Assembly: GCA_016205965.1 (NCBI GenBank)
Contig: JACQSM010000077.1
Span: forward strand, 1-17,352
Direction: 5' to 3'
Length of the DNA stretch: 17,352 nt
Source of the DNA: Candidatus Uhrbacteria bacterium
Lineage (GTDB): Bacteria; Patescibacteriota; Patescibacteriia; SG8-24
Shown here: positions 2,941-17,282 of the stretch, one piece after another
Position numbering within the stretch: the first letter of the stretch is position 1
Layout of the letters: each line of letters opens with the position of its first letter
The notes under the pieces: model-generated
The model's database searches: none
The model's input: the letters and a program-made list of their open reading frames with translations, nothing else
Told to the model about the DNA's origin: nothing
Made by a program: the position numbers and the translations under genes

Positions 2941-4932
2941 TCAGCTCCTCTGGCTGCCGGTGTTGTTGCCGTCGGCATGACCGGCCTTGGACGGCGTGTC
3001 CGTGCTAGGCGCGGGCTCGGTGACCGCCAGGTCTTCCGACGCGCCGGCCAGCTTCCCGGTCGCCGCGTCGGCAAGGCCGGAAAGCTTGCCGCCGATGCCC
3101 TTGAGCATGGCCAAGGCATCCACGCCCGCGCCGGCGAACATGCCGTCGAGGAACTTGGACCCGGACATGCCGCTGGTGAAGGCGCTGGTGATCTTCTCCA
3201 CGTCCTGTGAAGAACCGACCACCTCGACGTTGACCTTGCCCAACAGCGTCGCCTGGGCGTTGGCCATGGCGATCCGGACCTCGGCCTCCTTGGTGATCTG
3301 GAGCTTGGCCAGATCGAACTGCTGCGCCGCCTGGCCGAAATCCTGCCGAGCCTGGAGCTCGGGCTTGAGAACCTCGTCCACGTTCCGCTTGGCGATGTCG
3401 ACCTCCCTGGCCTTCACATCCACCGGAATCATGGCCGAGTTCTTCTGCACCTCGACCTTGGCCCGCTCCACGTCCACGGCGACCATCTGCGCCGCCTTGT
3501 CGCCTTCGGCCTGCTGCTTCTTGGCGCTGGCATCGGCTTCGGCCCGCTTGGTGATGGCCGTGGCCTCGGCTTCGGCCGCCAACTTCCGCGCTTCGGCGTC
3601 CTTCTGCGTCGCATAGGCGCTGGCGTCGGCCGTGCGCGAGGTCGACAGGTAGGCCTGCTCGGCCTTGGCCTTGGCCTCGATCACCTGCTTGGCCGCGGCA
3701 CGCTCGGCTTCGGCCGTCACCTGCACGGTGTGCACGGCTTGCCGCTGCTTCTCGCGGGCGGCTTCGGCCTCGGCCAGATCGGCTTCGGCCGTGGCTCGCG
3801 CCTTCTCGGCTTCGGCCACTGCCTGCTGCTTCTGACGCTCGGCGACTTCCACCGACTGCACGGCGGCGACCACCGCCTTCTCCCTCTCGCGCTGGGCGAC
3901 CTCGACGGCCTGCAGCTTCTGCTGCTCGGCCACCTCCACCGCCTGCTGCTGGGCGCGCAGGGCGGTCTCGACCGCCTTCTGCCTGCCGACGCCGGCGAGC
4001 TCGACCGCCTGTTGCGTCGTGATCTGGGCCTCCTTGGTGGCCTGATCCTGCTGCGCCTGGACCTTGGCGATCTCCGCCTTCTGGGCGGCCTCCGCCTGGG
4101 CCTGGGTCTGCTCCAGCTTCAGGACCGCCTGCTTGGCCTCCACGTTGAGCTTGGTCCTGGCCATCTCGCCCTGCCGCTCCAGCTGCGTCCGCTGGGTCTG
4201 CTGGGCCTGAGTGATCTCGGCGATGGTTCGCTTGCCCTGGGCGTCGAAGATGTTGTCGTCGCGCAGGTTCTTGGGATCCGTCTGGTCCAACTTTGAGATG
4301 GTCACCGTCTCGAGCGCCAATCCGTTGGGCGCCAAGTCCTTGGCGACGATGTCGATCACCGCCTTGAGGAACGTGTCCCTCTCGGAGTTGAGCTGCTCGA
4401 GCGTCCTGGTGGCCGCCACCGTGCGCAACGCCGAGATCAGCTTGTCCTGAAACTTCTCGGTGATGACGTGGGTGAACGACATGTTGGGCTTGATCTCGTC
4501 GCCGAACGAACGGGCGGCGTTCTTGATGTCGTCGTCCGTCGGCTTCACGTTGACGAAGAACTCGGCCGTGATGTCGGCGCGGAGCTTGTCATGGGTGATG
4601 AGCGAATCCGCTCCGACGCGGTTCACCACCAGACGGGTGGTGCTCAACGGCACGACGATCATCTGGTGGACCACCGGGATGACCAGCGCGCCGCCGTTGT
4701 TGATGACCTTGCTGCCGCCGGCGCCCGTACGGACGAAAGCCTCGGAGGCCTTGGTCTTGACGTACAGCTTGGTGACGGTCAGCACGGAGACGGAGAACAG
4801 GCACAAGACGATGCCGAACACCATCATGACCGTGGTGGCGAAGGCGCCGAGTGACGCGCCAGCGACGCTGGCGGCAACCGGCCCGAAGATCAGGGCCAAC
4901 GAAAACACGAACAACAGGATGATTCCGCTCAT
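2941..4932 (-). CDS. yqiK: Flotillin family protein (SPFH/band 7 domain, YqiK/FloT-like).
   Basis: 663 aa. N-terminal TM segments, then an SPFH domain (VINNGGALVIPVVHQMIVVPL...), then a very long Ala/Glu/Gln/Lys-rich 'flotillin' coiled-coil with degenerate AVEVAE repeats. AGGAG RBS 4 nt upstream of the ATG at 4932. The immediately upstream gene is an NfeD/YqiJ-like partner, the canonical pairing. Confidence 0.85.
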   Translation of the reverse strand: MSGIILLFVFSLALIFGPVAASVAGASLGAFATTVMMVFGIVLCLFSVSVLTVTKLYVKTKASEAFVRTGAGGSKVINNGGALVIPVVHQMIVVPLSTTRLVVNRVGADSLITHDKLRADITAEFFVNVKPTDDDIKNAARSFGDEIKPNMSFTHVITEKFQDKLISALRTVAATRTLEQLNSERDTFLKAVIDIVAKDLAPNGLALETVTISKLDQTDPKNLRDDNIFDAQGKRTIAEITQAQQTQRTQLERQGEMARTKLNVEAKQAVLKLEQTQAQAEAAQKAEIAKVQAQQDQATKEAQITTQQAVELAGVGRQKAVETALRAQQQAVEVAEQQKLQAVEVAQREREKAVVAAVQSVEVAERQKQQAVAEAEKARATAEADLAEAEAAREKQRQAVHTVQVTAEAERAAAKQVIEAKAKAEQAYLSTSRTADASAYATQKDAEARKLAAEAEATAITKRAEADASAKKQQAEGDKAAQMVAVDVERAKVEVQKNSAMIPVDVKAREVDIAKRNVDEVLKPELQARQDFGQAAQQFDLAKLQITKEAEVRIAMANAQATLLGKVNVEVVGSSQDVEKITSAFTSGMSGSKFLDGMFAGAGVDALAMLKGIGGKLSGLADAATGKLAGASEDLAVTEPAPSTDTPSKAGHADGNNTGSQRS

Positions 4933-5033
4933 GACTTGCTCCTTTTTTGGCGGCGCTGCGGCCGCACTGGTTTACCGCATTTCTTGCCTACCGCTTCCCC
5001 GCACCTGCGACTTGCACTTCACCGCACCGGCTT

Positions 5034-5720
5034 CTAGGCCTTCTCCTCCAAGTCCGGCGGGAGCCGTTCGACCACGTAGACGTCGTCGGTCTGATCGTAG
5101 TCGATCACGAGCACCGGCGCGTTCTTTTGCAATTCCTCGCCGTTGGTGCGGCAGGAAGCGTTGATGACGTTGCCCCCGCGGTCGTGCACCTGCATCAGGC
5201 CATGGGCCTTGCCGGCCGGCAGAATCAACTCGCCGGTCGACGTGATGAGATCGCGTTTGGTGAGCACGTAAGTCTCGGTTGCCGGCATGATCTTGCTCAT
5301 GAATCCGGCGAAACGGCCGGTGAGCGCGACCATGCCGACGAAGGCGATGGGCAGCGACACCAGGCCATAGAGCCATCCCGGCAGAAACTGCGACAGGAAG
5401 CTGTTGGCAATGAAGCCGATGCCGCCGAACGTGAGGGCGGCGGTGCTCAACACCAGGCTCATCGGCGCCCGGCCGATGCCGAGAATCGAGAGAGCCTTGC
5501 TGACGCTGCCGTGGCCGTCGTGGTGAATCTCGTGGCCGTCGAGTGCGTGCTGGGACGCATGATCCGACTCCGCGTCCGCGTCGGTATCGGCGTCCATGTC
5601 GGCGTCGCCGTCAGCGTCCGCGTTGGCGTCGCCGAATCCGAAAATGGACCCGGCGGCGAGCAACACTCCGCCGACAAGAGGGATGAGGAAGACGAGCGTC
5701 TGCCATGCGAAGAGGTCCAT
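5034..5720 (-). CDS. yqiJ: NfeD/YqiJ-like inner-membrane protein (DUF1449-type; C-terminal OB-fold), flotillin partner.
   Basis: 228 aa, starting at MDLFAWQ with AGGAGGGG 3 nt upstream. The ORF extends to 5774 but has no RBS there. Several TM helices. C-terminal 'TGELILPAGKAHGLMQVHDRGGNV...VLVIDYDQTDDVYVVERL' resembles the NfeD short beta-barrel. It carries an unusual acidic D/A-repeat and His-rich insert (GDANADADGDADMDADTDADAESDH...HEIHHDGHG). Confidence 0.6.
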   Translation of the reverse strand: MDLFAWQTLVFLIPLVGGVLLAAGSIFGFGDANADADGDADMDADTDADAESDHASQHALDGHEIHHDGHGSVSKALSILGIGRAPMSLVLSTAALTFGGIGFIANSFLSQFLPGWLYGLVSLPIAFVGMVALTGRFAGFMSKIMPATETYVLTKRDLITSTGELILPAGKAHGLMQVHDRGGNVINASCRTNGEELQKNAPVLVIDYDQTDDVYVVERLPPDLEEKA

Positions 5721-5848
5721 GGACCCCTCCTTTCGTTTGCCGCGTTCCGGCAGTGCCGGGGCGGCTGTTGTCAACGATCCGCTGCTCGAACCGGCGGCTC
5801 GAACAGATGATTGTGCTTACCACGTTTAAGCGGAGACGTCAAGCCTGG

Positions 5849-5877
5849 TTGCGATTTAACGGCCGAGCCGCTACCAT
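5849..5877 (+). promoter_or_regulatory. Candidate sigma70-like promoter for aguAB: TTGCGA -35 (5849-5854), 17-nt spacer, TACCAT -10 (5872-5877).
   Basis: Located in the divergent intergenic region ~35 nt upstream of the aguA ATG. Hexamer matches are moderate (4/6 each). Confidence 0.3.
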
Positions 5878-5910
5878 CCCATCGCTCGCTCATTGATAAA
5901 GGAGGCGGCG

Positions 5911-6959
<1,049 letters not shown>

Positions 6960-6963
<4 letters not shown>

Positions 6964-7820
6964 AATCGCGAATCGTGAACGCCGCCGTCATTCAATGCGC
7001 GCTGGGCGGCAGCCGGGATGACAACGCCCGCAAAGTGAAACAGCTCATCGATCAGGCGGCGCGAGCCGGAGCCAACGTCGTGGTCGCGCCGGAACTCTTC
7101 GAGACGCCGTACTTCTGCAGGACCAGGAGCCGCCGGCATTTCCAAGAGGCCACGACGCTAGATCGCAACCCGCTGATCGCCGACATGCGCCTGATCGCCC
7201 GCAGAAACAGCCTGGTGATCCCGTTCTCGTTCTTCGAGGACGGCGGTGACGGCCGCTATTTCAATACCGTCGCCATGATCGACGCCGACGGCCGCGGTCT
7301 CGGAACCTACCGCAAGAGCCACATTCCGACCGGACCCGGCTACTGGGAACGCCGCTACTTCGAACCAGGCGATACCGGCTTCAAAGTCTGGCGGACCAAG
7401 CACGGAAAGATCGGCGTCGGCATCTGCTGGGACCAGTGGTTTCCCGAATGCGCCCGCGCCATGGCCTTGGACGGAGCCGACCTGCTGTTGTATCCGTCGA
7501 CGATCGGCGCCGAGCCGCACCGACCGGATCTCGACACCCGCGACCGCTGGCGCCGCGTCATGATCGGCCATGCGGTCGCCAACGTCATCCCGATCGCCGC
7601 CGCCAACCGCACCGGCGTCGAGGACGGCATCGCCTACTACGGCTCGTCGTTCGTCTGCGATGACGCCGGCGAAATCGTCGCCGACATGGGCAGAGTGGCC
7701 CAAGGCTTCGCCATGGCCCAGATCGACATCAACGCCGTCCGGCGCAACCGCCGCGATTGGGGCCTGACCGGCTACCACCGCCGCCCCGACCTCTACGGCG
7801 CCCTCGTCAAAAAAGACTGA
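6960..7820 (+). CDS. aguB: N-carbamoylputrescine amidohydrolase (nitrilase/CN-hydrolase superfamily).
   Basis: 286 aa. CN-hydrolase catalytic triad context (VVAPELFETPYF ... YRKSHIP ... GVGICWDQWFPE). Translationally coupled to aguA through an ATGA overlap. Together the two genes convert agmatine to putrescine. Confidence 0.85.
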
Positions 7821-9125: not shown

Positions 9126-11174
9126 TCACGAGCAGGCGAACTGCTCCCGCCAGGTCACGCGCTTGAGCGAAGCGCCCTGGAACGCGGCATTCTGCTCCAG
9201 CTTGGGATACGTCCCGCGCTGGGTGCCCTTGCCGGCGTCCCAGGCGATGGCCTTGGAGCCGGTGACCTCCATGGCGAAGATGATGGCCCGCTTGAGATAG
9301 CGGACGGTAATCAAGCGCTGACGCACCTGCTTGACCCTGGTCCCGGCCTGCGCGTGGCTCATCTTGGCCGCGGCCTCGGCGTAGCTGCCGGCCTTGTACT
9401 TCATCAACCGGTACTCCACGCACCCGGCCTCGTACGTCTCCACCGGCACGCCCTGAACCTTCTCGGCCCGGCCGTGGTGGAACTCGTCCTCCTCGCCGTC
9501 ATCCTCGCCGGACGGAACCGTTGCCCCGATGCGGGCGTTGAGCGCCGTCTGCTCGGCCTTGAGCTCGGCCTCTTCCTGCATCAGCTTGACGAGTCCGAGC
9601 GTGGCCGGATTGCTCCAGTTGCCCGAGATCATCTTGATGTTGCGCAGGTTGAGGGTGTAGCACTTGCCGGGCACGTGCTTCTCGACGGCGCCGATCACCC
9701 CGGCCGACTGCAGATCCGCGAAGCTCTTGTCGGTCAGGACCGCCTCGAGCTCGGGCGTGTGCAGATTGCCGTCCAGGATGATGTTGAAGGTCCGATGCAG
9801 CTTCTTGTCTTCGGCCGGGCCGCCGTTCTCGGGCAGCACCTTGGCGTCGACCACGCACTGGACCGAGAAGTTGAAACGCGCCTTGTGGCTGCGGTAGCCG
9901 ACCACTCTCATGGTCTTGCCCAGCGGCGACGGGATGATGCGCGGGTCGCGGGTCATCTCGCCCGAGCGCTTGTAGGCGCCCTTGCCGAGGTAGACCACGT
10001 TGCCCTCGTCTTCCATCAGCGCCCGCAGGACGTTGAGCACGTTATGGTTCGGCCCCTTGGGCTTCAAGCCTTCGCCGATGTGCTTGCGGTCCCGGAACAT
10101 GCGCCGGAACTCGTCGGCCGTCTCGCGCTTCTCGCGCGGCGTGTACGACGAACCCGCCTTCTCGGCCAGGCCGTCGGCGCCGGCATTGATGAGGATCTCC
10201 ACGGCCCCGGCGCTGTCCCCGGTGATATACAGATAGGCCGCCTTGGCGATGGCGTAGCTCTTGGCCGACTCCGGCGTCAATGCCGTTGCCTTGACCGTCT
10301 GTTCCACCTTCTGGCCGTTCATCCGTCCGCGGATGGTGAACTCGTCGCATTCCTGGGTCAGCTCCACGAACAGCGTGGTCTTGCCCTGGTATGCGCCGCG
10401 GGTCCGGACGTGACCACCATCGCCGATGCTGGTCAACTCGGGCGTGGTCTTGAAGACCCTCCCCGCCGGGCCCTTGGCCGGCACGATCGCAAGGTCGAAG
10501 TTGACCGGGCGCGTGTCGCGGAAGACTTCGTCGGCGCTGACGATGGCCGGTCCGAAGTCCTCGATGTCGGAGATGTGGCGGTAGATGCCGGTGTAGCCGG
10601 CCGCCTCGGTCAGCGTCTCCATGAAATCCTGGTTGTAGTGGACGCCGTAGCCGATGACGGAAACGGAAGCGCCGGCCTCATCGAGCGCGCGAACCACGCT
10701 GAACGCCTTCTGCTCCTCCGCGTCCACGCTCCACCGGCTCGGCATGGCGCAGCCATCGGTGAACAGCACCGCATGGTGCAGCATGTCCTTGCGCGCCAGC
10801 CGCTCGACGGTCTGAAGCGTCAGCACGAGCGGCTCCGAGAAGACGGTGGTGTCCATGACGCGAACCTCCTTCTCGACGGCCTGCTTCAGCAGCTCGCGAC
10901 CGGCATGGTTGCACTGCGTCGGGCCGGCGATGAGCTTGGCCCGGTCATGGCCCGAGAAGACGATCACCGACGCGAAGTCGTTGTCGCCCAGCTCGGACAG
11001 GTACTTCTGGCTGTCGCTCTTGAGGTCGTTGATGTTCCCGCCCATCGAGACGGAACAGTCCTCGATCAGAATGGTGTGGCGGAATTCCGGCGTGGCGACG
11101 TCGCCCACATCCAGATCCACCATGACCACGTGCCGAAAACCCTTGATCAAACCTGACTGTGCGTAAATTTTCAA
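9126..11174 (-). CDS. Large von Willebrand factor A (vWA) domain protein with complete MIDAS motif; C-terminal ~450 aa of unknown fold.
   Basis: Contains RHTILIEDCSVSMGG (the DxSxS MIDAS motif), VIVFSGHD and LFTDGCA, a typical vWA beta-sheet order. Preferred start is TTG at 11174 with AAGGAG 6 nt upstream. The alternative ATG at 11237 (703 aa) lies ~9 nt from a predicted TSS and has no RBS. The gene is flanked by its own promoter-like element and terminator. Confidence 0.75.
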   Translation of the reverse strand: MKIYAQSGLIKGFRHVVMVDLDVGDVATPEFRHTILIEDCSVSMGGNINDLKSDSQKYLSELGDNDFASVIVFSGHDRAKLIAGPTQCNHAGRELLKQAVEKEVRVMDTTVFSEPLVLTLQTVERLARKDMLHHAVLFTDGCAMPSRWSVDAEEQKAFSVVRALDEAGASVSVIGYGVHYNQDFMETLTEAAGYTGIYRHISDIEDFGPAIVSADEVFRDTRPVNFDLAIVPAKGPAGRVFKTTPELTSIGDGGHVRTRGAYQGKTTLFVELTQECDEFTIRGRMNGQKVEQTVKATALTPESAKSYAIAKAAYLYITGDSAGAVEILINAGADGLAEKAGSSYTPREKRETADEFRRMFRDRKHIGEGLKPKGPNHNVLNVLRALMEDEGNVVYLGKGAYKRSGEMTRDPRIIPSPLGKTMRVVGYRSHKARFNFSVQCVVDAKVLPENGGPAEDKKLHRTFNIILDGNLHTPELEAVLTDKSFADLQSAGVIGAVEKHVPGKCYTLNLRNIKMISGNWSNPATLGLVKLMQEEAELKAEQTALNARIGATVPSGEDDGEEDEFHHGRAEKVQGVPVETYEAGCVEYRLMKYKAGSYAEAAAKMSHAQAGTRVKQVRQRLITVRYLKRAIIFAMEVTGSKAIAWDAGKGTQRGTYPKLEQNAAFQGASLKRVTWREQFACS

Positions 11175-11252
11175 AGTCCTGCTCCTTGGTGGGGCGGATT
11201 CGCCAGGAACCCGCGCGTTCGTTTGCCCCGAGGTCATCCCGAGACATGGCGG

Positions 11253-11289: not shown

Positions 11290-11317
11290 AATTAAAAAAC
11301 CGCCGCTCATGCGACGG
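11290..11317 (-). terminator. Intrinsic terminator (or attenuator) after the Ubl gene.
   Basis: Minus-strand RNA CCGUCGC-AUGA-GCGGCGG (7-bp stem including one G-U pair), followed by UUUUUUAAUU. Starts ~28 nt after the Ubl TGA. Confidence 0.5.
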
Positions 11318-11344
11318 TTCGTAGCGCGTCTGCCGCCCTCGGGA

Positions 11345-11599
11345 TCACGAGCCCTGGGGGCGCTCCTCCACCTTGACAGAGACGACATTGGCCAATGCCC
11401 TGTCGCCCGGACCGACGAAGGTGTCGAGCGTGGCCGGCTTGTCGTTGACGTACAGGTCCTTGTTCTTGGCCGAGACGCCGGCCTCCTTGAGCACCTCGCC
11501 CAGCTTGGCGCCGCTCTTGTTGACTTCCACCTGCTGGACCTTGGGCTTGCCCTGCTCACCGTTGACCTTCAACTCAACCTTGAACTTTCCCGCAGCCAT
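11345..11599 (-). CDS. Small beta-grasp ubiquitin-like protein (ThiS/MoaD-like) with non-canonical C-terminus (…VKVEERPQGS).
   Basis: 84 aa, starting at MAAGKFKVELKVNGE with AAGGAGG 5 nt upstream. The alternating beta/alpha pattern and 'LYVNDKPATLDTFVGPGDRALANVVSV' resemble the ThiS/MoaD 'VNGE...L.DGDEV.I.PPVSGG' region. It ends in Gly-Ser after an 8-residue tail rather than Gly-Gly. Lies 37 nt downstream of the E1-like gene. Confidence 0.55.
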   Translation of the reverse strand: MAAGKFKVELKVNGEQGKPKVQQVEVNKSGAKLGEVLKEAGVSAKNKDLYVNDKPATLDTFVGPGDRALANVVSVKVEERPQGS

Positions 11600-11636
11600 G
11601 GCTGCCTCCTTGTTCTGGGCCCGACATTGGGCCATT

Positions 11637-12317
11637 TCAATCCTCGACCGGGGTTTCCACTTCGTCCGCCGCCTCTTCAGCGTCGAAATCCCTGGCCAGA
11701 AACCGCTTGTGTGGCCTCATCCTGCCACCGGACCACTGAACTGTCAACTGTTTGACGACCCAGTTGGCCGCGTCGACGGCGACGAACACGATGCTGTGCT
11801 GGCCGCAATGCTGCATATTGGCCTCGCTCGACGGATACAGAAAGTGCTCGTAGTAGGCCTTATTCTGGACGTCGCATGGCTTGAGCGCGAAGATGGACAA
11901 GAACTCGACCGTGATCCGGGTGTCGATGAAGGCGTCGACCAACCCGTTGTCCTTCACCTGGTCCCAGATCAGCTTGCGCGCCTCCATGGAGTCGACGCAG
12001 GCGATGACCGTTCCCTTGAGTGGCTCGCCGGCGTACATCCGCTGGATGACCTTGAGGTTCACGCCGCTCTTGGCTCGGACCAGGCGCTCCAAGGCCGTGA
12101 CCTTGAACATGCCGATGTCGTCCTGACCGTAAGCCGAGGGCGCGATGTTGTGCGACTCAATGCCGTCTTCGTCGTAGACTGTGATGTCGTTGACGCCGAG
12201 TTTGGCCAGGATGTCCACGACCCAGCTGCCGACCGAACCGGCGCCGATGACGGTCACCGGCGAGGCGTTCAGCGGGTTGAAGATCTTGGACTGCTGCGAC
12301 AAGTTGAGCGCGTTCAT
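11637..12317 (-). CDS. E1-like enzyme of the ThiF/MoeB/HesA superfamily (ubiquitin-activating-like Rossmann fold), minimal form.
   Basis: 226 aa, starting at MNALNLSQQ with GGAGG 7 nt upstream. It has the nucleotide-binding loop VTVIGAGSVGSWVVDILAKLGV, the acidic DITVYDEDGIE segment and the D-x4-R motif (CVDSMEARK). Candidate catalytic Cys residues at KPCD and QHCG. There is no CxxC...CxxC zinc motif and a divergent HNIAPS replaces the usual NLxRQ. The ATG overlaps the stop of the upstream E2-like gene (ATGA). Confidence 0.8.
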   Translation of the reverse strand: MNALNLSQQSKIFNPLNASPVTVIGAGSVGSWVVDILAKLGVNDITVYDEDGIESHNIAPSAYGQDDIGMFKVTALERLVRAKSGVNLKVIQRMYAGEPLKGTVIACVDSMEARKLIWDQVKDNGLVDAFIDTRITVEFLSIFALKPCDVQNKAYYEHFLYPSSEANMQHCGQHSIVFVAVDAANWVVKQLTVQWSGGRMRPHKRFLARDFDAEEAADEVETPVED

Positions 12318-13801
12318 GGAAAAACCTCCGGGGCGACCGGCGCGTTGCCGGTTGGGCCGTCGTTGTTGGGTACGGCGGTTTCGCGGCTTTCCGCCGGCGT
12401 CGGGAGCGACTCCGGCGGCCAAGTCTCGATCTTCACCCGCGCGATCGCCGGCGTGTAGCCGTACTCGAGCCAGCGCAGCACGTGCAGGACGGCATCGGCG
12501 TAACGATGCTCGCCGGCCGCTTGGGTGATGACGTCGGTGACGTTGCCGAAGCAGGGCGTGCCGTCATCGTTGATGTGCGGATGCGACTCGTTCTTCGGGT
12601 GCGTCGGCGACTCGTTCCAGAGGCTGACGCGGCCATGCTGATTGATCCGGATGACGAACTCGCCGACCGGATAGCGCCGGCCGGCATGCTCGATCACGAT
12701 CTGCTTGGTGCCGACGTGCAAACCGTCCTGGACCAGCTCCACCGACGCGACTAGTGGATGGGAGATCAAACGGCGCGTGTCTTCTGGCACGCGCGACAAC
12801 TCCCTTTCAATGAAACCGGAGGTCGTGAGGGTATCGCGGAACATCTCGTACTCGCGTCTGACGCGATACATCACGGCCAGCTGCTGGCGATAGACGTCGA
12901 TTTCGGCATCACACCGCGCAATCTCCTCGGCGATATGTTTGGCTTTTGGGTCGAGCCATTTCTGCGCCATCTGCTTGAGCGCGCCGCGCCGGATGCGGGC
13001 CGGTTTCTTCTTGGCTGGCTTGGCCCGAAGACCTTCCCAGGCCAGCTTCACCATCGATTCGAACACTTGTTGTTGGCGGCCGAGGTCCTTGTCGCTGATG
13101 ACCGGAATCAAGAAGTAGACATTGGAGCCGACGATCTGCACCAACGGCCCCTTGTCGTCTTCGAGCACCGTCCCGCGTCCAGCCGACGGCCCATGACCAA
13201 TGCGGCGATCCAAGCCGTTCTTGAGGTCGATACCGAAGGCGGAGTCGATGTATCTCGTGGCACCGTCGCCCGGCGGACGGCTGTTGGTGTAGATGTGGAT
13301 CTCTCCATCCTTGTCCGGCTGCGGCGCTTTCGGCAGGCCGCCATTGGCATGATAGTAGACGTGCAGGCCGCTCAAACAGGCCAGACGTCGAAGATAGGCG
13401 AAGACCAGCGCATAGGTGGCCGCGTATTCCTCGCGTTCCTTGGCTTCGAGCTTGTCCATGTCCACGACCGTGAGCATTTCTCTCCTCAACGGATAATGGA
13501 GGTCGAGGAAACGGTGGCCCATGATACAGGACGTAGTTTGCCATTCTTCTTTGGCGTCGGAACCGGCGAGACTCTTGGCAAGCGCCACGACCAAGTCATA
13601 CTTCTGCTTCCCGGTCGAAAGCAGGCAGACGTCGATGTCGAGTCCGTCGAAGTTTACCGTCTTGAAGCGCGGTTTGAGGCCGGCCTTTGCGAAGGCCTCA
13701 TCCTTGCCTCGCACCAGCCATGCCGGAAGGCAGAAGAGGTTTCTGGAGTTCTTCGGGGCCGGAGTCTCGGATTCGGTTTCCTTCTTCTCCGCGGGATCCA
13801 T
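12314..13801 (-). CDS. 495-aa fusion protein: uncharacterised N-terminal ~330-aa region plus a C-terminal E2/UBC-like ubiquitin-conjugating domain.
   Basis: C-terminal 'YPVGEFVIRINQHGRVSLWNESPTHPKNESHPHINDDGTPCFGNVTDV...ADAVLHVLRWLEYGY' fits the UBC pattern (strand pair, HPN/HPH loop, G-x-x-C catalytic Cys, following helix). AGGAGG RBS 5 nt upstream of the ATG at 13801. The stop overlaps the E1-like start. Antisense ORF 12758..14071 is rejected. Confidence 0.65.
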   Translation of the reverse strand: MDPAEKKETESETPAPKNSRNLFCLPAWLVRGKDEAFAKAGLKPRFKTVNFDGLDIDVCLLSTGKQKYDLVVALAKSLAGSDAKEEWQTTSCIMGHRFLDLHYPLRREMLTVVDMDKLEAKEREEYAATYALVFAYLRRLACLSGLHVYYHANGGLPKAPQPDKDGEIHIYTNSRPPGDGATRYIDSAFGIDLKNGLDRRIGHGPSAGRGTVLEDDKGPLVQIVGSNVYFLIPVISDKDLGRQQQVFESMVKLAWEGLRAKPAKKKPARIRRGALKQMAQKWLDPKAKHIAEEIARCDAEIDVYRQQLAVMYRVRREYEMFRDTLTTSGFIERELSRVPEDTRRLISHPLVASVELVQDGLHVGTKQIVIEHAGRRYPVGEFVIRINQHGRVSLWNESPTHPKNESHPHINDDGTPCFGNVTDVITQAAGEHRYADAVLHVLRWLEYGYTPAIARVKIETWPPESLPTPAESRETAVPNNDGPTGNAPVAPEVFP

Positions 13802-13922: not shown

Positions 13923-14495
13923 CTAATCGCACGAACACGGACCCCAATGATGGATGTCGTGGTGTTTGCACGGACAGGATGCGTGACTGCGCCAGAAAGC
14001 CGGGCAGCCGGCATTCGCCTTTTCTTCGCCTAAAAACTCGCCTTCGGGCGGCAGACGAAAATCAGCAGTGAGCTTTTCCGGCAATACCTTATACAGGGTT
14101 CGGTCGTCCTCAAGCGTCAGCGGCCTTCCTTTCATATCCCGATGCGCGGCGATCGCTTTCATGAGCCGATCGAGTTCGAGCCGCAAAGATTCTTCGGACA
14201 TCACCTCGAGATCATCGTCCCATTTTTGAGAATCGGCCTGTGCATCGGCAGGAATCGGATCCGCCGCATCGGCCCGGCGATGCGTGAAAAAATCGCGACA
14301 TCGCGCCATCATCTCGTCATGCGGCGGCAGAGCCGTCGGCTTGGGCGGCGTATCCTCGAGCAGCGCCCAAAGCTTATAATCGTCCAGCCAGCAGCGATCA
14401 TCGCCCTTTTGGTCGCGATGATAACGGATGCTCTGCCGAAATTTTTTGATCGCCGCGGAGAGTTTCCCGCGAGTCATGTTTTGATCGAAGATCAT
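13923..14495 (-). CDS. Hypothetical protein with Cys/His-rich C-terminal cluster (CPAFWRSHASCPCKHHDIHHWGPCSCD), possible metal-binding (treble-clef-like) module.
   Basis: 190-aa ORF 9 nt downstream of the HAD gene stop and 120 nt upstream of the E2-like gene on the same strand. Sense-like codon usage in a lower-GC stretch. No RBS at either candidate ATG (14495 or 14477). No recognisable family. Confidence 0.4.
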   Translation of the reverse strand: MIFDQNMTRGKLSAAIKKFRQSIRYHRDQKGDDRCWLDDYKLWALLEDTPPKPTALPPHDEMMARCRDFFTHRRADAADPIPADAQADSQKWDDDLEVMSEESLRLELDRLMKAIAAHRDMKGRPLTLEDDRTLYKVLPEKLTADFRLPPEGEFLGEEKANAGCPAFWRSHASCPCKHHDIHHWGPCSCD

Positions 14496-14504
14496 TTTTT
14501 GATC

Positions 14505-15155
14505 TTACACCGTTGGCGCGCATGTCGATAATTCGCGGCCGATTTCGCGCAAACATTCACCGGCATTCCGATGGGCATCGACACGAAATGCGCGGCCGCC
14601 GAGCTCGTCGAACAGATCGCAGGTCTTCCTCGAATCATCGACCAAAAAAGCGTTCGACATCGGGACGCCGAATTCGTCGGCGAGATCGGCGAAGGTCCGA
14701 CCGCGTTGATCGGTTTTCAAACGCCTGACATCCGAACTGTTGACGATACGATCGAAAAATTCGTCCAGCCGGAGCGCCGCGATCGTGAATCTCGAGAAAC
14801 AATCCATGTTATCGGTGACCAGCGCCAGGCGCGCTGTTTTGCGGAGGTCGCGTAACAGAGGGATCGCGTCGTCATGCAGCCGCATATTTTTGCAGCTTTC
14901 CGCCAATGCATCCATCAATGATTCTGCGGGCACTGAAAGCTGCGGCGCCAATAGGTCGCAAATTTCTTCCGAGGACAGCTCCCCCAGCATCCACTGACGA
15001 ACCCGGCCGCGATCGGCGCCGAACAGCAGCGACTGAATCTTTTGGTAAATCTCCGGCCGCATAGTTTGGAAAGATTGCCAAAACCGCGAACCGGACAGCG
15101 TCCCGTCCCAATCGATGAACACCAATGGCCTCCGTTGAACATTCCCGATTCCCAT
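14505..15155 (-). CDS. HAD-superfamily hydrolase/phosphatase.
   Basis: 216 aa, starting at MGIGNVQRRPLVFIDWDGTL (HAD motif I DxDGT). Motif II is LALVTDN and motif IV is AFLVDDS. The longer start at 15206 would overlap the divergent plus-strand gene head-to-head. Confidence 0.7.
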   Translation of the reverse strand: MGIGNVQRRPLVFIDWDGTLSGSRFWQSFQTMRPEIYQKIQSLLFGADRGRVRQWMLGELSSEEICDLLAPQLSVPAESLMDALAESCKNMRLHDDAIPLLRDLRKTARLALVTDNMDCFSRFTIAALRLDEFFDRIVNSSDVRRLKTDQRGRTFADLADEFGVPMSNAFLVDDSRKTCDLFDELGGRAFRVDAHRNAGECLREIGRELSTCAPTV

Positions 15156-15170
15156 GATACCAAGTATAAG
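15142..15170 (+). promoter_or_regulatory. Candidate promoter for the small plus-strand ORF: TTCCCG -35, 17-nt spacer, TATAAG -10.
   Basis: TTCCCGattcccatgataccaagTATAAG, ending ~35 nt upstream of the ATG at 15205. The -35 match is weak. Confidence 0.25.
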
Positions 15171-15204
15171 ATAACGCGATTTCAGGCGCGAGGAGGAGTC
15201 CGTC

Positions 15205-15519
15205 ATGACGAAGAAAACAACGGCGAAGGTTTCAAAGAAGTTGCGGAAAATCTACGGCGACGCCAAAAAAGAGGGCATCTGGATCCGCGAATACAAGGGC
15301 GGTACCGGTTATCTGGCGGCCGCCGGCTACATGAAGGTCATCGAGGCCTGGGAAAAGAAGCTAAGCCGCAAGATCGACATCGAAAAACTCGAACTCGGCG
15401 ATGTGGTCGCCGTCGCCGCTCCAGGAACCGGCAAGACCAGGGAAGAGGCCTGCGAAAATGCCGTCACGAACCTAAAAAAAAGCGAGAAACCTCGCAGAGC
15501 TTCCAAGCCGCGTCGCTGA
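15205..15519 (+). CDS. Small lysine-rich basic protein (104 aa), function unknown (possible nucleic-acid-binding/regulatory protein).
   Basis: Strong AGGAGGAG RBS 6 nt upstream of the ATG. Clear third-position G/C bias. Occupies an otherwise empty intergenic segment, divergent from the HAD gene and convergent with the 349-aa gene. No family recognised. Confidence 0.5.
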   Translation: MTKKTTAKVSKKLRKIYGDAKKEGIWIREYKGGTGYLAAAGYMKVIEAWEKKLSRKIDIEKLELGDVVAVAAPGTGKTREEACENAVTNLKKSEKPRRASKPRR

Positions 15520-15584: not shown

Positions 15585-16634
15585 TTACCAGATCTCGTTT
15601 GCGGCCGGACGGACGGTGACGCGAGCCCCCGGCGATGCCGACTTGATCTTCTCAACGTGCGCCGGATCGTCGCAGACCATGAACAAACTGCCGAAGCTTG
15701 ATGTGCCGAAGCCGTCGCTCATCTCGCCGCGAGTCACCTCGACCTCTTTGGTGACCGGCTTGCCGCAGCCATCCACATGGCAGGTGTGCGTGACTCGGCC
15801 GCGAATGTAGGCCCGCGTCTGTTCCATGAAGGTCGTCGGCCAAACGGTGTCCGTCGTCTCGACGAAGACGTTGTTGAGCTTGAGCCGCTGCGGCTGATCG
15901 GCCGAGGCCAAAACAACGATCCTCTTTCCGCCATCCTCGAAGTCCTTATTCCAGCCGCCACCGTAGTAAACTCCGCTCTTCAGCAGCAATGGATCGAACT
16001 TGAACTCGACGTAGTGCTTGCCGGTCGCCCGATCCCGCCAATGATAGGCATGATCGACGATCCTCGAGATCGGCACATCGCTCTCGTTGGCGTAAGCCGC
16101 GGGCGCGGTCGCCAGCCCCAGCCGTTTGGCCAGTTGCAGCGCGACCTCGGCTGCCTCCGGACTGAAGACGGAGATCGTGAGCGCATGACCGCTCAACCGC
16201 GCCGCCGACAGGAAACGATGGCGCTGGAAAGATCCGTTCGATGAAGACCATCCCGATTGCCATGATCCTTGGAGAGTCTTGGGCGCGGCTTCGGTCAGGA
16301 TCAGATGAGCCTCGCCGTGCGACTTCGTGGCCGGATCGAGGATCACGCCCGGAATACGAAACTCCTCGACCAGAGCGCCAATCATGGCTCTGATTTCATC
16401 GAAAGAAATCTGATCGGTTTTCCGGTATGGCGTGGTGAAGGTGACATCGATGCCGAACGCGCTCCTGACGGCCAACTCACCGAAACTCAAGCCGCGATTT
16501 TCAATCTCATCTTCCAGCCGGCGGCGATCGTCTCTGTCGAGCCTCATGAGATAGGAATAGACATCTTTGCCGGAGAATGAGCCCGTGGGCAGCTTCGCTT
16601 CCATCTTGAACAAACGGCCAATCGATCCGAACAT
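15585..16634 (-). CDS. Hypothetical protein (349 aa) with C-terminal Cys/His cluster (HTCHVDGCG...CDDPAH).
   Basis: Starts at MFGSIGRLF with GGAGG 5 nt upstream. Sense-like codon usage. No family recognised by eye. The cluster is a possible zinc-ribbon-like module. Confidence 0.5.
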   Translation of the reverse strand: MFGSIGRLFKMEAKLPTGSFSGKDVYSYLMRLDRDDRRRLEDEIENRGLSFGELAVRSAFGIDVTFTTPYRKTDQISFDEIRAMIGALVEEFRIPGVILDPATKSHGEAHLILTEAAPKTLQGSWQSGWSSSNGSFQRHRFLSAARLSGHALTISVFSPEAAEVALQLAKRLGLATAPAAYANESDVPISRIVDHAYHWRDRATGKHYVEFKFDPLLLKSGVYYGGGWNKDFEDGGKRIVVLASADQPQRLKLNNVFVETTDTVWPTTFMEQTRAYIRGRVTHTCHVDGCGKPVTKEVEVTRGEMSDGFGTSSFGSLFMVCDDPAHVEKIKSASPGARVTVRPAANEIW

Positions 16635-16716
16635 CTTTGCCTCCGTCGGCGCGCGTAGCACGCTTGGATTTCAAACGAGCTTGCGGCGATGAGAATATCA
16701 GGAGTCCGGCGCGCGG

Positions 16717-17244
16717 TCAACGGGCCGAAACCAAATCCACGTTCGATCCTTCGATGACCTGGCCGAGGAACGGCAGCAGCGCGCGCTGATAATTTTGAAA
16801 CTCGAGCCGATCTTCTTCGACAATCTCCTCCTTCTGCAGTTCGACTTCAAAAATCTGACCGACATCTTTCACGGTATCGAGATGAAAAACGGCATCGCCC
16901 TTCCGCCAAACCTCCCGGGTCTTTTCGACGATGGCGCGGGTACCGAGGCATTGCTCGAGAAACGGCAATAGCATATCGTCGCCGACCGAATACAGTTTAA
17001 CCAGCGCCGGCGTCACCGCGCCGCTCACGAACGACGGTCGTTCATAATAGACGAGCGTCTTCTGTGCGTTTTCGATCCGAAGTTTCAGACGCGGCTGCTG
17101 GCCGCCATTCTCCGCCGGCAGAAAGAAAAAATAATCTTTCTGATTCTTGACGATCTCCTTATGCGCGCCAATCTGCTCCAAAACTTCGCGCACCTTAGCG
17201 AAATCCTGGCAAAAATGTTTCAGCTCGAGGTTGATCTTGTTCAT
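16717..17244 (-). CDS. CYTH-domain protein (CyaB-like class IV adenylyl cyclase / triphosphatase family).
   Basis: 175 aa from MNKINLELKHF. This N-terminal ExExK-type motif is characteristic of CYTH/CyaB, and size (~175-180 aa) fits. The alternative GTG start at 17262 adds 6 residues. No RBS at the ATG. Confidence 0.6.
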   Translation of the reverse strand: MNKINLELKHFCQDFAKVREVLEQIGAHKEIVKNQKDYFFFLPAENGGQQPRLKLRIENAQKTLVYYERPSFVSGAVTPALVKLYSVGDDMLLPFLEQCLGTRAIVEKTREVWRKGDAVFHLDTVKDVGQIFEVELQKEEIVEEDRLEFQNYQRALLPFLGQVIEGSNVDLVSAR

Positions 17245-17282
17245 AGAACGAAATTGTAGCACGTGGGACGCGATGCGGCTCT

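Follow-up and report, generated by a model that had tools for sequence, protein, structure and literature searches.

A serine in place of the terminal glycine in a ubiquitin-like protein encoded with E1 and E2-like partners in Patescibacteria

We describe a small cassette of three genes in a contig of Candidatus Uhrbacteria bacterium (JACQSM010000077.1), the whole 17,352-nucleotide (nt) stretch of which is referred to here as the window. The last of these genes encodes an 84-amino-acid (aa) ubiquitin-like protein (Ubl) that ends in a near-invariant Ser where related carriers end in Gly; the other two encode a short ThiF-type E1 enzyme and a 495-aa protein with an E2-like domain. We favour, with about even confidence, a reading in which the Ubl would be mature as encoded and the E1 would activate Ser84 directly for transfer to the E2-like Cys, in a conjugation-type relay that would derive from cassettes carried by phages. 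Gene order, folds, invariant residues, tail register and the lack of a linked peptidase are seen directly, and from this anatomy of genes and proteins we infer Ser adenylation, a thioester relay and conjugation. A C-terminal Gly is treated as a near-universal need of E1-activated modifiers, from ThiS to ubiquitin. The present proteins form a natural family of about 100 lineages in which E1/E2-type catalytic residues are intact, an invariant Ser stands for Gly and no trimming protease is linked.

The Ubl gene (11345-11599, minus strand; 84 codons plus stop) has a Shine-Dalgarno sequence, AAGGAGG, 5 nt upstream of its ATG (11605-11611, minus strand; read directly from the sequence). Directly after its stop codon lies an intrinsic terminator with a 10-bp stem containing six GC pairs and a T run (11297-11320, minus strand), which is the end of the operon. 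Translation of the open reading frame (ORF) bore out the starting observation of the first-pass annotation, namely that the protein ends ...VKVEERPQGS and not in Gly-Gly; the codons of the tail signature E79-R80-P81-Q82-G83-S84 span 11348-11365 (minus strand), Ser84 being the presumed activated residue. Databases list the identical protein, annotated as hypothetical, for a metagenome-assembled genome (MAG) of Candidatus Uhrbacteria, an uncultured groundwater bacterium. In a sister locus (L002:3336-3358), the last 17 bases of the Ubl gene are repeated right after its stop codon (CGCCCCAGGGCTCGTGA, equivalent to RPQGS-stop), so that a short stretch coding for the tail stands there twice in tandem.

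A profile of the Ubl family retrieved 66 matches from 1.84 billion representative proteins, 57 of them single-domain proteins of 72-111 aa. An AlphaFold2 model built on an alignment of 58 relatives, with a predicted local distance difference test (pLDDT) score of 74.6, has beta-grasp topology, and its C-terminal tail, modelled at low confidence, is presumably flexible. Pfam matches were weak: SAMP2 was the sole match of the window Ubl (E 0.031; 15.1 bits against a cutoff of 27), and the relatives matched SAMP2 in 32 of 58 cases and ThiS in 14 of 58, one member (P0072) passing the ThiS cutoff (23.1 versus 22.5 bits). Judged by its predicted fold, the 84-aa protein is a ThiS/MoaD-like beta-grasp Ubl, the identity first assigned to it from its letters.

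The tail, E-R-P-x-G-S, is the best-conserved part of the Ubl; its residues were counted over 102 distinct homologues. The columns of the Ubl with at least 90% conservation are G17, E79, R80, G83 and S84, and no others. Counting back from the end, the last position is Ser in 100 of the 102 sequences and the one before it Gly in 98; position -3 is the most variable (Gln in 62, Arg in 22, Ala in 11), and it is preceded by Pro in 91, Arg in 97 and Glu in 98 at positions -4, -5 and -6, respectively. None of the 102 homologues has a residue beyond the terminal Ser. The first-pass annotation had suggested checking for an invariant Gly and a variable tail, a pattern that these counts do not show. The exceptions are three members that end Ser-Ser, one that ends GA and one that ends AG; these ends amount to a pair of small residues set at a constant distance from E-R, and not to a Gly plus a cap. 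The terminal Ser is encoded in relatives by TCG, TCC, TCT and AGC, members of both Ser codon families, and is followed by TGA, TAA or TAG, which means that the constraint acts on the amino acid and that the protein end is real. A hairpin with a T run lies just past the Ubl stop in most related loci, as judged by eye from the flanks. Some lineages of the Candidate Phyla Radiation (CPR) read UGA as Gly; such a code, which would extend the protein past Ser, is ruled out here by the use of all three stop codons and by the terminator flanks.

The length of the tail can be compared with that of known carriers through the Pfam ThiS profile. The E. coli ThiS and MoaD sequences align over residues 3-66 and 4-81, respectively, to the whole profile (1-76), and this end-to-end mapping places the activated Gly at profile position 76. 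For five short Ubls (P0033, P0034, P0038, P0066 and P0072), the local alignment to the profile ends at position 68 or 69, and the residues left over equal the profile positions left over. From these equal remainders, and barring an insertion or deletion in the last 7-8 residues, Gly83 falls on profile position 75 and Ser84 on position 76; in this register the Ubl is as long as mature ThiS, and Ser replaces the terminal Gly. With the tail so placed, R-P-[Q/R]-G-S pairs with R-L-R-G-G of ubiquitin.

The main rival to direct activation of Ser84 is that Ser is a one-residue cap, removed by an unlinked peptidase, after which Gly83 would be activated canonically; the enzyme could be a JAMM peptidase encoded elsewhere in the genome, a carboxypeptidase or the N-terminal domain of the 495-aa protein. 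We regard this as unlikely, and it fits the data poorly. Gly at position -2 in 98 of the 102 homologues speaks for it, as does the fact that the characterised E1/E2 modifiers known to us all use a terminal Gly. The cap would, however, be the most conserved residue of the Ubl and would never exceed one residue in 102 sequences; its removal would leave a tail one residue shorter than that of ThiS or MoaD, and the three Ser-Ser members would expose a Ser whichever way they were cut.

The gene content of the cassette bears on the same question. Using the 495-aa protein, the E1 and the Ubl as handles, we gathered loci from NCBI MAGs, JGI/ENA metagenomes, Logan assemblies and GTDB representatives. 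The order E2-like, E1, Ubl was found in every locus with sufficient sequence, amounting to about 20 independent loci: the window, L002, L003, L005, L006, L008, L010-L014 and L018, together with L022-L024, L026, L028-L030 and two more contigs listed without DNA. The E1 gene lies directly upstream of the Ubl gene in all of them, and in the window the ATG of the E1 gene overlaps the stop codon of the 495-aa gene (ATGA), an arrangement of translational coupling. Inspection of the neighbourhoods covered ~8 kb to either side of every cassette. Across the triad loci, 269 kb in total, it revealed no JAMM motif that we consider credible. One match to the JAMM regular expression in L010 (HPHPLPEAQPSAGD, on the opposite strand of a contig with 68% GC) was judged to be a chance hit in a Pro-rich shadow frame. 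Neither Pfam nor PADLOC detected a JAB peptidase in the window. The first-pass annotation had placed the Ubl in a cassette that encodes no protease; both parts of that description hold, and the partners can now be named as an adjacent E1 and an E2-like protein. The lack of a linked peptidase at ~20 independent loci counts against removal of a cap, which keeps some probability because inspection extended ~8 kb per side.

The E1 (226 aa; 11637-12317, minus strand) is a short ThiF-type enzyme that scores 60.8 bits against the Pfam ThiF model (cutoff 28.1). Residues G25, G27, G30, G41, D49, D51, H56, N57, K72, D109, M111, R114, T133, R134, Y161, C171 and G172 are invariant in 15 E1s of the triad and its sisters; the GxGxxG loop, the DxD motif, the Lys, the DxMxxR motif and the Cys-Gly pair are thus all kept. 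Among proteins in the PDB, the E1 family profile matched E. coli ThiF best (2.6e-12), followed by MccB, PaaA and UBA5. D109-x-M-x-x-R pairs with TDNMATR of the ThiF sequence in the PDB, which contains the Mg-binding Asp. The profile alignment has a second segment, which is not significant; in it Cys171 (codon 11805-11807, minus strand) pairs with ThiF C184, a placement repeated in a MAFFT alignment with ThiF and MoeB. The S-H-N motif of the window E1, S55-H56-N57 (12147-12155, minus strand), belongs to a family pattern S-H-N-[IV]-x-x-S in which Pro, Met, Ser or Asn stands at the position of the ThiF Arg and an invariant His precedes the Asn; the protein begins past the position of the N-terminal Arg helix. 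The PADLOC E1-E2 models covered ~70-125 residues of the Rossmann-fold region (~40-167 of the 261-aa ORF) with E values from 1e-13 to 1e-7.

The 495-aa protein (12314-13801, minus strand) begins with a beta-rich region, continues as a coiled coil and ends in a UBC/E2-like domain; it carries HPHINDDGTPCFGN near its C-terminus. Its AlphaFold2 model (pLDDT 81) shows the beta-rich region, a long coiled coil (~274-347) and a C-terminal domain with the elements of a UBC fold, i.e. a helix, a four-stranded meander, an active-site loop and further helices. The motif H407-P-H...C417-F-G-N420 (12542-12583, minus strand) places a Cys after His-Pro at the spacing of E2 enzymes, with His and not Asn at the third position, and H407, P408, H409, C417, F418, G419 and N420 are invariant across 14 database homologues (HPH-x7-C-F-G-N). 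Alignment with hhalign put HPH...C417 onto HPN...C85 of UBE2D2, a weak match (pairwise E 0.0074, probability 5%). The 495-aa protein matched no Pfam, NCBIfam or PADLOC family, and neither it nor 13 homologues matched the curated E2 families (Pfam UQ_con and Prok-E2_A-E; PADLOC E2). Its ~260 N-terminal residues have no recognisable fold, a circumstance that would allow a cryptic hydrolase there, as cap removal might require; against this, the N-terminal domain lacks an H-x-H motif, and none of its Cys or Ser residues is invariant.

In the pathway that we favour, Ser84 would occupy the Gly position of ThiS, MoaD and ubiquitin, and the E1 would read the fixed tail E-R-P-x-G-S. The ThiF-type E1 would bind this tail and adenylate the Ser84 carboxylate with ATP; the acyl group may then move to Cys171 of the E1, the counterpart of ThiF C184, and would be transferred to Cys417 of the UBC-like domain. 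The N-terminal domain and coiled coil of the 495-aa protein would bind a partner or target, and the Ubl would be delivered to a nucleophile of that target, likeliest a protein lysine. The system would include no trimming or deconjugating peptidase.

The same residues can be read as parts of a sulfur-carrier or biosynthetic system, in which the Ubl would form a thiocarboxylate, as in ThiS, MoaD and TtuB, and the Cys residues would relay persulfide sulfur. The Ubl is indeed nearest to the ThiS, MoaD and SAMP carriers in sequence and fold, the cassette lies among housekeeping genes, and the E1 is ThiF-sized with an invariant Cys at the position of C184, the residue that forms the acyl-disulfide with ThiS in ThiF. 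We nevertheless consider this reading improbable: no sulfurtransferase, rhodanese, cysteine desulfurase, acceptor of the ThiG, MoaE or TtuA type or biosynthetic gene is conserved next to the cassette, whereas the partner that always accompanies the Ubl has a UBC fold and an E2-type HP[H/N]-x7-Cys site, the hallmark of conjugation systems. The nearest relatives, described below, bear JAMM peptidases and poly-Ubl genes, which also tells against it. It is also conceivable that the Ubl is never activated and joins the E1/E2-like pair non-covalently, as a subunit or adaptor, its tail being a binding epitope. The nucleotide loop and the Mg-binding Asp, like the Cys residues of the E1 and the E2-like protein, are, however, invariant across deep divergence, and the strongest constraint on the Ubl falls on the last residues of a flexible tail, the site of activation chemistry; this possibility seems to us hardly credible.

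The origin of the cassette is illuminated by relatives in phages. The Ubl profile also matched multi-beta-grasp proteins, among them P0071 and P0081, which were examined in their loci. In P0071, a tandem of three units, every unit closes with LLVQAVKGN; the protein is preceded by a 231-aa ThiF protein that matches the window E1 (4.6e-35). P0081 likewise has three units; VRGN and a spacer close each of them, and the third terminates in VRGNHKETV. It is followed by four genes, whose products are a protein of 652 aa that matches the E2-like profile with its C-terminus (1.5e-14; APHVDKSGKACLGN), another E2-like protein, a protein of 477 aa bearing the exact JAMM motif HSHVRMGTGPSGTD (PADLOC JAB, E 0.0018) and a related E1. 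Scanning IMG/VR with the E1 signature [WYL]DxDx[VI][EAS]SHN yielded 70 viral loci. An E1 was called in 69 of them, and 55 of these have, within 200 nt of the E1, an ORF that matches H-x-H-x7-S-x2-D exactly. The viral Ubls end in KGGC, KGGAEIM..., KGN, KGNK, KGNV, KGA, QGA, AGAN, NGGF or AGI, or form tandem repeats; the pattern is K-G-[N/A/G] followed by 0-5 variable residues. In a neighbour-joining tree, 13 triad E1s form one clade nested in the viral radiation, nearest to L033, L034 and L039. L033 has the triad order with a JAMM gene between the E2-like and E1 genes, and a double Ubl that ends in KGG plus a tail.

Tails and polyproteins thus co-occur with an encoded peptidase, and the peptidase-less triad has a fixed, unextended terminus. 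That relatives possess both JAMM peptidases and short C-terminal extensions lends some support to removal of a cap; the removable tails of the JAMM-linked relatives vary, however (N, NK, NV, A, AN, C, F, I, HKETV), unlike the single Ser of the triad. The cassette looks like a derivative of the phage-borne E2-like/JAMM/E1/Ubl sets in which the peptidase would have been lost and the Ser terminus fixed. The first-pass annotation had left two routes open, C-terminal processing or an unusual activation. Processing has become less likely, given the fixed single Ser, the Ser-Ser members, the ThiS register and the occurrence of JAMM only with variable-tailed phage relatives; activation of a non-Gly terminus has gained accordingly.

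Several further features of the phage loci deserve mention. SHN-type E1 loci comprise L033-L103 (IMG/VR) and L104 (PQ006092.1), several of which also have an E2-like gene and Ubls. Deposited phages with this E1 include crAss-like phages (Bacteroides), Flavobacterium phage FpV4 and Xanthomonas and Erwinia jumbo phages, in which the E1 is annotated as 'thiamine biosynthesis protein' or 'E1 enzyme family protein'. To judge by their gene content, the E2-like/JAMM/E1/Ubl genes of phages look like an uncharacterised ubiquitination-like module. Poly-Ubl genes (L031:1618-2232, L032:8001-8960, P0112, P0037 and P0075) encode 2-3 tandem units with K/R-G-N or K-G-A ends, and the last unit either stops right after N or bears K, NK or HKETV. 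Since the Asn after the conserved Gly is itself conserved, the mature terminus of the JAMM-linked Ubls may be non-Gly, or the Asn may be a cleavage determinant.

A chemical role for the side chain of the terminal residue would offer another explanation of the tail. The Ser side chain would react, either by cyclisation or rearrangement, as the Asn of MccA does with MccB, or by an N-to-O acyl shift at Gly-Ser giving an ester, and the product would not be an ordinary isopeptide. Such a role would account for a near-invariant Ser where Gly, Ala or any small residue should suffice, and is in keeping with the preference of the sister systems for Asn at the equivalent position, with the high rank of MccB among the PDB sequences that match the E1, and with an E1 that has an invariant His and is without the canonical Arg. 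On the other hand, the match to MccB reflects the common Rossmann core, ThiF scoring better with the family profile; the invariant E2-type Cys points to an ordinary thioester relay; and the terminal residue is Ala in one member and Gly in another. Chemistry of this sort is not known for Ser, and a four-membered lactone would be unfavourable. We hold this explanation to be very improbable. A slim chance may be given to a broader proposition, in which this clade of E1s would have evolved for non-Gly termini (Ser in the CPR triad and, it appears, Asn or Ala in the phage relatives), the Ser hydroxyl would be chemically required for activation or for the final linkage, and the product would differ from a standard Gly-Lys isopeptide, such as an intermediate that is cyclised or activated as an ester, or a linkage irreversible by known deubiquitinase-type peptidases.

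Several points weigh against direct activation of Ser84. Every characterised E1-to-E2 modifier that we know of is activated at a C-terminal Gly, and replacement of G76 in ubiquitin impairs its activation by E1. The E1 of the triad has neither the Arg of the NLxRQ motif nor the N-terminal RYxRQ helix of MoeB and ThiF, which makes its competence for adenylation an assumption. The register of the tail presupposes that the last 7-8 residues contain no insertion or deletion, the local Pfam alignments ending at positions 68-69. The neighbour-joining tree of the E1s carries no support values. Finally, a peptidase could be encoded elsewhere in these genomes, beyond the ~8 kb inspected on each side of a cassette.

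The surroundings of the cassette are ordinary chromosomal genes, e.g. infC-rpmI-rplT, lexA, ndk, greA and the gene for penicillin-binding protein (PBP) 1. In an all-against-all comparison of flanking ORFs, no neighbour beyond the triad was conserved, sharing being confined to close relatives. The named sources are mainly Patescibacteria (CPR): Uhrbacteria, Parcubacteria and 'Patescibacteria group'. Two GTDB representative MAGs are labelled Candidatus Binatia (L010, DATJFD010000002.1) and Gammaproteobacteria (L012, CAZFZQ010000023.1), which reflects either mis-binning or a true spread beyond CPR, all other named sources being Patescibacteria. Cell-envelope genes (a class A PBP, VanY, a sortase and a weak M23 match) occur near the cassette in L006, L008 and two contigs; their recurrence, which has no statistical support, may be due to chance in small CPR genomes.

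Within the window, the gene directly downstream of the Ubl terminator (9126-11237, minus strand) encodes a protein of 703 aa that has a vWA domain at its N-terminus (Pfam E 1.6e-5). It was considered as a fourth component or target and rejected, as a terminator stands between and it is absent beside every other cassette; in the sister genome this site is occupied by a 219-aa gene together with a Y1 transposase. The cassette is flanked at its opposite end by genes for a 190-aa protein with a Cys/His-rich C-terminus (...CPCKHHDIHHWGPCSCD) and no family match (13923-14495, minus strand) and for a HAD-family hydrolase (14505-15206, minus strand). Situated between the cassette and the next terminator, these two genes may share its transcript; the sister genome lacks them, and for that reason they look like an insertion. 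Farther on are a very basic protein of 104 aa (15205-15519, plus strand), whose counterpart in the sister genome is 70% identical, a 358-aa protein of unknown family (15585-16661, minus strand) and a CYTH-domain protein (16717-17262, minus strand), which are syntenic with the closest relative (L002/L017) and not with other cassette loci. The 190-aa, HAD, 358-aa and CYTH genes were accordingly dismissed as members of the cassette, each being common to the closest relative only or to none. Housekeeping pairs occupy the other side of the window (2941-7820): an SPFH/Band-7 protein (2941-4932) with a YqiJ/NfeD-like membrane protein (5034-5774), and an agmatine deiminase (5893-6963) with a carbon-nitrogen hydrolase (6960-7820), the two steps of a route from agmatine to putrescine.

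If Ser is activated directly, the E1/E2 relay would be chemically more permissive than has been assumed, and the cassette would provide a minimal system of three proteins (84, 226 and 495 aa) for probing the part played by the terminal residue in adenylation, thioester transfer and reversibility. Our data place a ubiquitination-like cassette in the chromosomes of Patescibacteria, organisms with small genomes and few regulatory systems, and tie it to a large group of E2-like/JAMM/E1/Ubl cassettes in phages, crAss-like and jumbo phages included, with an E1 that is annotated as a thiamine biosynthesis protein. The literature searched as full text in PMC and bioRxiv contained no description of the triad, of a Ubl/ThiF system in Patescibacteria or of adenylation of a C-terminal Ser, and PADLOC and NCBIfam scans for named or defence systems returned generic E1-core matches only.

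Among known systems, the carrier-E1 pairs ThiS/ThiF, MoaD/MoeB, SAMP/UbaA and TtuB/TtuC resemble the triad in their small beta-grasp protein of ThiS length with a flexible tail, and in a short (~220 aa) ThiF-type E1 that has no catalytic-Cys insert and carries a Cys at the C184 position. The triad differs from them in its Ser terminus, in its UBC-fold partner, in the absence of sulfur-transfer or cofactor genes, and in an E1 without the NLxRQ Arg and the N-terminal Arg helix. MccB and MccA of microcin C7 share with the pathway proposed here the activation of a non-Gly C-terminus by a member of the E1 superfamily, MccB activating a C-terminal Asn. The substrate of MccB is, however, a heptapeptide held in an N-terminal peptide-clamp domain that the triad E1 lacks, no E2 is involved, and the product is a phosphoramidate and not a conjugate. 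In type II CBASS (cyclic-oligonucleotide-based antiphage signalling system; Cap2/Cap3), a fusion of E2 and E1 acts on a CD-NTase (cGAS/DncV-like nucleotidyltransferase), and Cap3 is a JAB peptidase. In the triad, by contrast, E1 and E2-like protein are encoded by separate genes, with neither a CD-NTase nor a JAB. A PRTRC system combines its own ThiF equivalog with PRTRC A/B/C/E and ParB genes; the PRTRC ThiF model, TIGR03736, scored 38.8 bits against a cutoff of 144.75, and the other PRTRC models had no match. Also close are the four-gene anti-phage system Bil (BilABCD) and operon types 6a-6e of Iyer et al. 2006 (Ubl, E2-like, JAB and E1). Bil, with BilC, and types 6c and 6d contain a JAB/JAMM peptidase and a Ubl with a conserved Gly (PMC1779556; 10.1101/2024.11.21.623966). 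Unlike these, the triad has no peptidase, a Gly-Ser tail and housekeeping neighbourhoods in place of defence islands, and the PADLOC BilA and BilB models had no match in the window. The Bub systems (types I and II) form oxyesters through a Tyr in the E1 crossover loop and a catalytic Ser of the E2, have a conserved C-terminal Gly and always include the DUF6527 serine protease BubE (10.1101/2024.11.21.623953); the triad, in contrast, has Cys at both catalytic positions, a Ser terminus and no BubE, no DUF6527 being detected in the window. The closest resemblance is to the phage E2-like/JAMM/E1/Ubl cassettes, with which the triad shares an E1 clade ([WYL]DxDx[VI][EAS]SHN, Cys-Gly) and an E2-like domain ([AH]PH...C[LF]GN), and from which it is set apart by having neither the JAMM gene that adjoins the phage E1 (55/69) nor variable-tailed or tandem Ubls. 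Since Bil, Bub and type II CBASS all depend on a Gly terminus and on a JAB or DUF6527 peptidase, and since their models do not match, the triad is, on its gene content, best viewed as a minimal E1/E2/Ubl-like pathway that lies outside Bil, Bub, type II CBASS and PRTRC.

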